A stretch of 61,431 bases of DNA, counting the filler, from Squatina squatina (taxonomy: Eukaryota), in assembly GCA_031763465.1 (NCBI GenBank). It is 4 parts of 3 records of this genome, joined end to end, with 100 filler letters (N's around TTAATTAATTAA, not from the genome) between each part and the next. Parts side by side here need not be neighbours in the genome. Positions count along the whole stretch, not along the records: positions 29,568 to 42,853 come from JARFOE010000121.1; 3 more parts are not named here. One strand, 5' to 3'. A program made the position numbers and the translations under genes. Under the pieces are notes generated by a model. That model ran no database searches and was not told where the DNA came from. It saw nothing but the letters and a program-made list of their open reading frames with translations. How positions within the stretch are numbered: the first letter of the stretch is position 1; every line of letters begins with the position of its first letter. Positions 1 to 31,397 of the stretch are shown in pieces.

Positions 1-59
1 CCCACAAAAAAAATCTAGCCCATAATCACTATGGTACCGTATCCTTATAGATAAGCACT

Positions 60-860
60 GAAATCCTGGTCCACTTCTCATTTAAATGTTTAGATATAGG
101 CAAACAATGAATTATATTAAAGTTTGCTGTTCATACCAAATTATGGAGCTTGGAAACTGAGGTACTTCACAAAAGATTGTAGGAGGACATTAACAAATTA
201 AAAGAGTGGGCAGATAGGTTCATAGCAGTTCAATGCGAAGAAACATCAAGGGGCACATTTGGGAAATAGAAAAGTGAAAGGAAGTACCCCAAATGATAAG
301 AAATTAATAGAGTTGAGGAACAGAAAGATTTGGGGAGGCAGACTTATGGCTAGTTAAAGCGCAGATTGAAAAAGCCATTAAAAAAGCAAATAAGATCGAT
401 CTATGTTTTGTACATAAAAGATCGATCTAGGTGTTGAATAGTAAAGATAGGAAATCATCTTGAATTTGTATTAGGTCACTTTTGGAAGAATGCAAGCAGT
501 TTTGGATATCCCATTATAGAAAGGATAGTGGATCCACAGAAAGCATACAGCAATAGTTCATTAGAATGATACCAGGAATGATAGTTATGAAGAAAGACTG
601 AACAGAGAAACTTAAAGATGGATTTTAAAATAGATTTATAAATTATGGAACGTTTTGAGAGTGTGAAGAGTGATATATTTTGTCCAGTACTGGTGAATTT
701 GTAACAAGGGGGAATAAATCAGGATTATTACTAGAAGAAAAAAAAGTGAGAGGGGAGGGGGAAGAGTTATGAGCAGATTTTGTCACAAATGTTTCTTGAA
801 ACATGCTATGCTGTAACACTAATAGCTATTGAGGCAGAATCTATAGCATGATTTAAAATT
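60..860 (+). mobile_element. Decayed CR1-type LINE, C-terminal RT region and 3' part
   Basis: Degenerate CR1 ORF2 motifs (KFA..TKL, EDINKLKEWADR, QFNAKK, RMIPGM) with many stops and indels; boundaries approximate. Confidence 0.7.
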
Positions 861-909
861 GAATTGGTTACTACAAAAAGGATTTTAAATATATATTTTT
901 GTATTTCAG

Positions 910-1301
910 GGAATACAAGGGAACCAAATTTTATCTCAAAGAAACGAGTGGCATACTACAGACCTCAAGTTTCACAATCTTTTCACTGGGACTGCAGCAG
1001 TGATTCCGAAAGCAAATTTCATGAACCGATACCCAAAGTACCTGAACTCGTGAAATCACAGACTTGTGTTTTCAATAAAAGAGTGACTGAGAAGGCTCAA
1101 GAGACCCAAGAAGAATGCAAAACTCCTAATGCTCCTCGAAAAGCTAAATTTCCGAGATCACGGTCTGCGGACTGCCGTTTGCACTCGGCGTTAGAACCAT
1201 CAGTGGCCAAAGTCAAGCAGTTGGCTGCAGATGCGCAGAAAGAAAAGGAAGACAACCTGGCTTCAAGAAAAGAAGGTGCAGATAAGGCAGTTGATAATGG
1301 T
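910..1301 (+). CDS. MDM1: MDM1 (centriolar/nuclear microtubule-binding protein) internal coding exon
   Basis: tttcag| acceptor and GGT|gtaagt donor. Peptide GNTREPNFISKKRVAYYRPQVSQSFHW...RSRSADCR...AVDNG matches recalled human MDM1 GITKEPSFISKRRVPYHDPQISKSLEW...RSHSADSR...ENVDNG. Lies next to IFNG, as in other vertebrates. Confidence 0.88.
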
Positions 1302-3078
1302 GTAAGTAGGAACAATGATTATTAAAGTGACATACTACTGGTTTTTGGTCCTCTTGTGTAGACTATATTTAATAATTGCCAAAATGAAATATCAACACTT
1401 GCAATCACACTGGTCTTTCTGAAAATTTCAAGAGCAATGGTCAAATATATTGAATTAATTTTTACAATTTAAAAAATCAGAATTAATACTATAATATCTT
1501 GATGGAACTTGGTTTCATTTACCAGCTTAATAAAAAGTTAAATTCTTTTAAAGTAACTGTACATCTTTATTAAAGATGGTTAGTGGTAGATTTGCTAATA
1601 TTATGATTCTTCCACCCGTTAGATGGTCAGTGCTGCCATTTTGCATGTGGCCAGGTTTAGCAACCTGGCTTTACACACCTGCCCACCATTAACCTGACCC
1701 TATTTCTACTTTTGGGGTTCAAAAATGTGCTTGTTCAGTGGGAGGCAGGATGGCTAGATTGTGCTGTATGATTCTAAGTAACGGACAGCTGTAGAACACT
1801 ATAGTTGCTGAGGCACCTGAAGACAATGATTGATGGGAACCGACCAAAAATAATTAGCCTTACCCACTGTGGTTTGTGATTGGCTGGTACCCATGAACTG
1901 TGAATTATATTTTAAAGGTACACAGCTTCAATAAAGAATTTTTGGTTAACTTTTTGTACCTGCATAATGTGACTATCTAAATTGTTTTGAAATGCAACAT
2001 CATACCACTAGCAAATGATGCCAAAGCAATGGAAATGCAAACTTCTCCAGCGCGCNNNNNNNNNNNNNNNNNNNNNNNNNNNNNNNNNNNNNNNNNNNNN
2101 NNNNNNNNNNNNNNNNNNNNNNNNNNNNNNNNNNNNNNNNNNNNNNNNNNNNNNNAATAGTTTCTTAAGGGTACATTCTCTAAACGAATAATATTTATTT
2201 CTGATATTTATTGTGTATAATTGTATACACATCATCGTATTTACTTACAGTAAGTTATGAGTAGCAATCAGCATTGCTAATGGACACTTGTAATATTACA
2301 TTGTTATACGTGTTGGGCAGAAAGTCGAAGATTGCGTCTTTAAAACTTTAAATAAAATACTTGTAATAAAACAGGATACATAATGAGTTCATTCTTTGTC
2401 AGTTATGTGGTGGAACTGTTTTCTGCAGAAAATGCTCTCTATGCGGCAAAATATGGCCTGTGAAGCGTTATGGTTTTTGTTGCAAGCTCAAAACTCGTTT
2501 CTATAAAGAACAGTTTATTTGCAAATAATAGGAAATAATCACTGCAAGGAATAAACTGGAATACAATTTTCTCTCTTAAAATTGGCAGGCACTATGATAC
2601 TGAAATCCGGTTGAGTTTAGAAAAAATCCCATTTTTTTTGTATTTGATAAGTTTGATGGCGATTATCCGCGAAGACACCTAGGTTGTGTCAAACACAGGC
2701 TAACAAGGTGAGAAAAGGCATCATGTCTTCTCCGTTAAACCTAGCCGATGAAGACATGTATAAAGCGAATGGCTTAAACTGCTTTGAAATGTCTTTAACA
2801 AATTCCAATCTTTCAATCTAAACGTGACAGGCGTCTTTAGAGAATGATTCCTTCCTGTGTTTATCATTTGTAATAATTTAAAAAAAAACCCAGAAGAGCC
2901 AGTTAATCAGAAACTGTAAAAGTACCAGACATGTTTTGTTGTAGTTTGATTATATTAAAGCATATCTTCTGCCATCCACAACACAAATAACGATAATCAG
3001 ATTTTATCAAACGCTTGTCTCACATGGGATTTCCGAAACCGAGATAGTGATGTTGTCACCATATACATTATATAAACT

Positions 3079-29567: not shown

Positions 29568-29801
29568 TGACGCTCACATTGATAGATGGACAATTGTGAT
29601 ATTGCAAGTTAGTGGTAATAGTCATCGATTGTATGGAAATAAAACAGTCAGCATATCTCATAGTTAATCTAATATGCAGTGGGACTATATTTAAAAAAAA
29701 ACTATATGTTCCCAGTGAAGTCAAATCACATTTAAAAATAAACATTTTCACTTTTTTTGAATTTGCTTTTGAGTTCTACTATAGTGATCTGAAGGCTGTG
29801 T

Positions 29802-29810
29802 AAAGGATAA
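29802..29810 (-). other. ALG12: U12-type 5' splice site variant TTATCCTTT
   Basis: Immediately follows the TGG GGA (WG) codons; matches RTATCCTTT except at +1; no good GT donor nearby. Confidence 0.65.
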
Positions 29811-29914
29811 TCCCCATTTGGAGCTCTTATTCAAGACTGTGTTGTACCAAAGTACTTCTCCCTCAGGCCATAGGAGACGTCCCCAAAATATAGAATCCAC
29901 ACACACGGTTAGAC
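29811..29914 (-). CDS. ALG12: ALG12 alpha-1,6-mannosyltransferase exon
   Basis: tttcag| acceptor; [35 protein letters not shown], 104 nt. Confidence 0.92.
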
Positions 29915-30017
29915 CTGAAAGGAAACATACTGGAATGTTACTAGATGTGTTATTTGGGTGTACGGACAAGTCGTTAAATTCAAGTCCCTGTCGAAGAACA
30001 AACAGTATGTTACTTAC

Positions 30018-30212
30018 CCAACCACACCAAACCAGCTGGTACCGCATGGCACAGACTTTTGAAAATAGAAATATGATGGTTCACGACTGACAGCAACAGC
30101 ATGAGGCCCAGGAATATGCAAAGCTCAGATCGGAACACAATGATAGATAAAGCAGAAAGCCAGATAAAGGTGCCATGGTTCTGCTGCATCCAGGCAGTAA
30201 ACGCCAAGATAA
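30018..30212 (-). CDS. ALG12: ALG12 exon
   Basis: gcag| ... G|gtaagt, 195 nt; [40 protein letters not shown]...[10 protein letters not shown]. Confidence 0.93.
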
Positions 30213-31223: not shown

Positions 31224-31397
31224 CAATAGGAAATGCAAAGATATTTGGGAGAGTTCTTGAGCAGTAGAAGAGAAGATGAAACTGAGTTGCTGAGATCCAA
31301 CAGTAAAAACAAGCCACTGTTGAGCCAAACTGTTTCCTTACTTCTTTCTGAAACTTCCATAGTGCATAAATCACACAGAGACCCAGGCATCCTCGAA
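31224..31397 (-). CDS. ALG12: ALG12 exon
   Basis: cag| ... G|gtgagt, 174 nt; [25 protein letters not shown]...[20 protein letters not shown]. Phases join correctly with the next two exons. Confidence 0.93.

Follow-up and report, generated by a model that had tools for sequence, protein, structure and literature searches.

A probable minor-class intron with TT-AG ends in the ALG12 gene of Squatina squatina

Results and Discussion

The ALG12 gene of the shark Squatina squatina appears to contain a minor-class (U12-type) intron with TT-AG ends. On the strength of sequence comparisons, we consider it likely that this intron is removed exactly at TT...AG by the minor spliceosome. The intron is U12-type by both defining signals, and a contig from a relative carries the corresponding exon joint. 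At the register that restores the conserved protein, the terminal dinucleotides are TT-AG and match neither canonical U12 subtype (GT-AG or AT-AC).

Gene structure and donor site

The window, the whole stretch of 61,431 nucleotides that was analyzed, includes several ALG12 exons on the minus strand. The exon that ends at the unusual donor (29811..29914, 104 nt, phase 0 end) matches PF03901 above the cut-off (29914-29811, E 1.4e-5) and is 97% identical to residues 223-259 of Heterodontus ALG12. It is separated by an ordinary GT-AG intron of 103 nt (29915..30017, minus strand) from a coding exon of 195 nt (30018..30212, minus strand). A further coding exon of 174 nt (31224..31397, minus strand) is 89% identical to Heterodontus residues 100-162. 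These last two exons were located by tblastn and have AG/GT flanks. Beyond the window, a downstream exon of 224 nt (G000:C121:2936793-2936570, minus strand) begins TSPFFWYFYS and is 96% identical to Heterodontus ALG12, a protein whose sole PDB match is 9s6t. AG/GT flanks and an open frame are present in each of the three other ALG12 exons checked, and the four exons around the site show no stop and no frameshift. Identity to shark ALG12 proteins is 88-95%, the best match being Pristiophorus (232/245 residues).

In a genome search, every ALG12 exon recovered was present in a single copy, so that a decayed duplicate gene is unlikely. The first and last exons were not found in this genome-wide search, and the assembly is therefore incomplete. 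A separate contig of 1.7 kb carries an early exon (residues 56-99; L014:143-274, plus strand; G000:C252287). An EPL1-domain exon, presumably BRD1-like, is located 1.6 kb past the last ALG12 exon found, across N gaps (PF10513, E 2.6e-39; L002:4701-5423, minus strand; G000:C121:2934923-2934201). Elsewhere in the window is an exon of an MDM1-family gene (852-1322, plus strand; PF15501, E 1.6e-19). The U12-like donor motif GTATCCTTA upstream of this exon (39-48, plus strand) is probably a chance occurrence; it has no clear exon ahead of it, and positions 1-2055 yielded no U12 branch motif. An Rfam scan of the window returned no matches.

The last base of the 104-nt exon is position 29811. Its final codons, AAA TGG GGA (K-W-G), are followed by intron sequence beginning TTATCCTTTAC. 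Intron position +1 corresponds to 29810 (G000:C121:2939341), where the assembled base is T. The donor opening TTATCCTTT (29802..29810, minus strand) is assigned as a U12-type 5' splice site on the basis of its sequence, predicted U11 pairing and the exon joint described below. Its positions +2 to +9, TATCCTTT, agree with the extended U12 consensus. A sequence-only reading of this DNA had described the same exon end and the T at +1 on the minus strand, and both stood on re-reading. It had also seen no plausible GT donor nearby, which proved correct: between -100 and +120, GT/GC sites in frame with the acceptor occur only at -96, -90, -45, -27, +81 and +108, and all are unusable. Use of any of the first four would remove 9-32 conserved residues, while +81 and +108 sit downstream of a stop codon at +61.

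The 8-mer TATCCTTT is common by itself, occurring seven times in the window against 3.17 expected (at least seven in 2 of 100 shuffles) and at a frequency of about 1 per 11,000-39,000 positions. The branch motif TTCCTT[AG]AC occurs once in 66,098 called positions on both strands of an 80-kb region. Given this rarity, the placement of the donor motif exactly at the conserved exon end and of the branch motif at the acceptor is beyond chance.

Acceptor and intron structure

The first 243 nt of the intron lie within the window (29568..29810, minus strand) and the remainder in adjoining DNA. Ahead of the next ALG12 exon, whose first base is C121:2936793, stands TTTCCTTGAC-TGAGATTCTATTTAG, and the AG end of the intron is at G000:C121:2936794 (minus strand). 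The U12 branch sequence TTCCTTGAC is found at G000:C121:2936817-2936809 (minus strand), with a pyrimidine-rich stretch upstream of it. The distance from its branch A to the exon is 17 nt, longer than the optimum of 11-13 nt given in PMC3584512. Because 1716 of the 2548 nt that make up the intron are N, its true length is uncertain.

Joining at TT...AG is in phase 0 and restores KWG|TSPFFWYFYS. When 14 junction registers (-6 to +7) were tried, the conserved WG|TSP was obtained only from register 0 (TT-AG) and register -1 (AT-TA), the latter being incompatible with the joint in the relative's contig. Register +2 has AT-AC ends in this genome (ATCCTTT...AGAC) and keeps the frame, giving WG|LSP. 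All other registers were rejected for stops, altered residues or implausible ends. Of 294 homologues, 265 have a readable junction and 29 do not; in 199 of the 265, the residues after the junction are Thr-Ser-Pro.

Contigs from related organisms

Contigs of 4 of 20 sequencing runs were aligned to the stretch covering three exons. These runs derive from related organisms, the best sharing 0.38 of the stretch's words, and X9 and X18 are designated “RNA” by a software guess. From X18 (organism F, RNA-labelled), one 2307-nt contig joins three ALG12 exons. Its joint, 394->2943, carries no ambiguity (both=0) and is followed by 102 exon bases (2943-3044) with no other letters. This joint fits register 0 only; the shifted +2 AT-AC and -1 registers are excluded there. 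The sequence-only reading had looked to transcripts to identify the donor and its paired acceptor; in this relative's contig the exons are joined in the TT...AG register.

The X9 contig (organism A) runs 54 nt into the TT-AG intron, with one other letter and one gap over 156 nt. The 103-nt upstream intron is removed in this contig, as in that of X18. The 54 nt represent a retained minor intron, as expected with slow U12 splicing. Removal at the TT...AG boundaries is thus seen in one of two RNA-labelled runs, both from relatives, the contig of the other entering the intron; such contigs are no measure of splicing or retention rates. The three runs that cover +1 (X5, X7, X9) have one A>C tally each, and X18, in which +1 is uncovered, has none. 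G at +1 in both organism A and organism C could account for these tallies, but a repeat at the end of the stretch could do so equally, and they are uninformative. Organism F, the source of the spliced contig, could itself carry G or A at +1.

The same intron in other animals

A minor intron is catalogued in both human and mouse ALG12 (supplement rows of PMC4667643, PMC11347168 and PMC6800510), in agreement with the sequence-only reading, which had named ALG12 as a minor-intron gene. The human intron spans 1299 nt (chr22:50301593-50302891, hg19). Both the human and the mouse introns are reported to respond to minor-spliceosome defects, with higher retention of the human intron in RNU4ATAC patients (38.5% vs 8.0%). 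The human intron is disease-relevant.

Protein models that read through the donor indicate that this intron has a U12 donor across animals. Among 29 such models from other animals, 16 continue V-S-F and 13 I-S-F (GT/AT-TCC-TT). None of the 29 continues L-S-F, and none is from a named cartilaginous fish. Where species are named, I-S-F comes from seven ray-finned fishes and V-S-F from a skink and a beaver, which points to A at +1 in those ray-finned fishes and G in those tetrapods. Given the beaver model (WG|VSF) and the other read-through models, we infer that the catalogued human intron is at the same junction. Several observations support the interpretation of the shark intron as the orthologous U12 intron, here starting with TT: its branch sequence and AG, the joint in the relative, the human and mouse minor intron and these 29 models.

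Models of cartilaginous fishes provide a further indication. Leu occupies the junction in Heptranchias, Cetorhinus, Mustelus and Narcine (NCBI models; P0003, P0007, P0216, P0218), four of 23 cartilaginous-fish species, and Thr in the remaining 19. Counted by rows, Leu occurs in 4 of 40 from cartilaginous fishes, one cluster being represented by 15 of its 21 members, against 0 of the 225 other junctions read. A U12 donor of the form N-T-A-T-C-C before a Thr codon would offer annotation a false AT-AC intron two bases further in. A model shifted in this way would expose the +1 base of the intron as a residue: Val for G, Ile for A, and Leu for T or C. The four Leu models are probably such mis-annotations. 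In a tree computed with the junction residue masked, Cetorhinus (Leu) is sister to Carcharodon (Thr; support 100/99), Mustelus (Leu) is sister to a Scyliorhinus pair (Thr; 98/92), Narcine (Leu) falls inside the batoids (100/100) and Heptranchias is at an unresolved fork.

These placements suggest one shared pyrimidine at +1. Four true Thr-to-Leu changes seem much less likely, as each would require two base changes and would have recurred about four times. The Thr in the models of 19 species is silent on +1, and Leu fits T and C alike. The junction residue itself is variable: V or I precedes SP in 14 rows, some of them probably genuine. Two related geckos are included (P0045, WG|VSP; P0054, WG|ISP), in which the residue is a true substitution or else results from the same +2 shift.

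We judge the chances slightly better than even that a pyrimidine at +1 is old and common to sharks and rays. It is an evenly balanced proposition that U specifically was fixed in their common ancestor and has been kept since, in a constitutive intron of a housekeeping glycosylation gene. Sharks and rays split more than 250 million years ago.

Minor spliceosome components and proposed mechanism

The U11 and U12 genes are intact in this genome, each with upstream elements that we take to be an octamer and a PSE-like element. The 5' end of U11 is predicted to form a duplex of 7 bp with intron positions +3 to +9 (-6.5 kcal/mol), leaving +1 unpaired. A duplex of 10 bp with the branch A bulged is predicted between U12 snRNA and TTCCTTGAC (-9.2 kcal/mol). 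The sole U6atac-like copy found (L016:2-121, minus strand; G000:C636205) has an altered 5' end and lacks the Rfam-consensus 5' box. Neither octamer, PSE nor TATA motifs were found upstream of it, and a search with the U6atac consensus pattern gave 8 two-mismatch matches vs 6 in a control. This copy is probably a pseudogene, the functional gene being missing from the assembly. A shark-specific change in U6atac was rejected as an explanation for the TT start: the single copy is promoterless and pseudogene-like, and there is no sign of an adapted machine.

A mechanism consistent with these predictions can be proposed. With U11 paired to +3 to +9 and U12 to the branch sequence, recognition of the first base would not depend on RNA pairing. 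Positions +1 to +3 would instead be contacted by the U11-48K protein, which is reported to recognize the first three intron bases in place of RNA pairing (PMC3584512). The minor spliceosome would then assemble normally, guided by the strong signals at +2 to +9 and at the branch sequence. Cleavage would occur before U+1 and ligation at AG, perhaps with more retention. A single-base difference at +1, where tetrapod models indicate G, ray-finned fish models A and this genome T, would be tolerated, probably at a cost in retention, because the first base lies outside RNA pairing and non-canonical ends are spliced. According to PMC3584512, non-canonical U12 ends support splicing, often with lower efficiency.

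Alternative explanations

The strongest alternative is that T is real in Squatina and recent. The Leu residues of the other species would then be separate changes to T or C, or true substitutions, with most sharks keeping G or A. This is a credible minority view, to which we give appreciable weight. It is in line with Thr in 19 of 23 species models and with a +1 base that is already A in ray-finned fish vs G in tetrapods. Non-canonical U12 ends also switch often, being the same in human and mouse for only 10 of 24 (PMC1557818). Weighing against a recent origin, some four or five independent events would be needed, all in one intron and one clade, to produce a type of start (TT-AG, CT-AC, CT-AG, CT-AT) listed for 38 of 73,671 animal minor introns (~0.05%; PMC10639083).

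The sequence-only reading also raised polymorphism or a base-call error. In this case, T would be a private allele or consensus error in a species with an ordinary GT-AG (or AT-AG) U12 intron. The assembly is fragmented (1,152,659 contigs) and incomplete, neither the end exons of ALG12 nor a functional U6atac having been found, and the A>C tallies in X5, X7 and X9 are compatible with G in relatives. Furthermore, TT-AG accounts for only 0.014% of animal minor introns, and consensus error rates are of the same order. However, Leu is present in four other elasmobranch models from different branches, independent of this assembly, and neither stops nor frameshifts interrupt the four exons around the site. 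An error or private allele has become less likely in view of these shark and ray models, and we regard it as unlikely while reserving a small probability for it.

Removal of the intron by the major spliceosome, either from the non-canonical TT site or from a cryptic GT nearby, is highly improbable. A constitutive TT-AG junction in human ETV1 (PMC4176328) and the pyrimidine-rich stretch ahead of the branch sequence could be accommodated by such a process. The match of +2 to +9 to the U12 consensus, the U12-type branch sequence, the lack of a usable in-frame GT and the response of the human and mouse introns to minor-spliceosome defects all oppose it. Least probable of all is a true cut two bases further in, yielding an AT-AC intron and WG|LSP: register +2 does have AT and AC ends with the frame kept, and four NCBI models show Leu, but the exon joint of the X18 contig is at register 0 and free of mismatches, Thr is found in 10 of 10 Logan-labelled skate-like proteins, a +2 donor is out of register with U11 pairing and a false AT-AC is available wherever an NTATCC donor precedes a Thr codon.

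Significance and relation to known introns

Pyrimidine-start minor introns are known mainly as survey counts and are hard to separate from assembly or annotation errors. ALG12 provides a named, transcript-supported and probably clade-wide case. As such, it is a substrate for testing how U11-48K and the contact between the first and last intron bases operate with U at +1. The case also flags a likely annotation error in four public shark and ray protein models, and no new splicing machine is implied. If U is ancestral, a single orthologous minor intron would be processed with a different first base (G, A or U) in each of three vertebrate lineages. This would constitute a natural long-term test, in which the catalytic steps of the minor spliceosome need no purine at +1, and would identify a source of systematic Thr-to-Leu error in public shark protein models. 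Tolerance at +1 also bears on the clinical judging of +1 variants in U12 introns, because an A>G change at this position of an LKB1 intron causes disease (PMC8329584).

The TT-AG intron of shark ALG12 is probably a further case of a very rare type that has already been counted. Larue and Roy (2023; PMC10639083, Supplementary Table S1) count 10 TT-AG introns among 73,671 conserved animal minor introns, together with 12 in plants. These share their terminal pair with the shark intron, and the table gives counts without gene or species, such that shark ALG12 may be among the ten or absent from them. In literature searches, no report of a TT donor was found for ALG12 or for sharks; the intronIC data, IAOD and MIDB may already list the intron. 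Nothing on TT ends appears in the available portions of PMC13602164, PMC7367187 and bioRxiv 10.1101/2020.07.18.209528.

Another close known system is the human and mouse ALG12 minor intron, which is of the same gene and U12 class. It probably differs in its first base, tetrapod models indicating GT and ray-finned fish models AT vs TT here. The RT-RN U12 introns of Sheth et al. (2006; PMC1557818) likewise depart from the canonical subtypes by one letter, switch subtype frequently and are subject to automated mis-mapping. However, all 66 of 66 in this class start with a purine and the class is defined in this way, so an intron with a TT start cannot belong to it. The human ETV1 junction of Parada et al. 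(2014; PMC4176328) is also TT-AG, is constitutive and breaks standard aligners. It is in a different gene, and it may be either U2- or U12-like.
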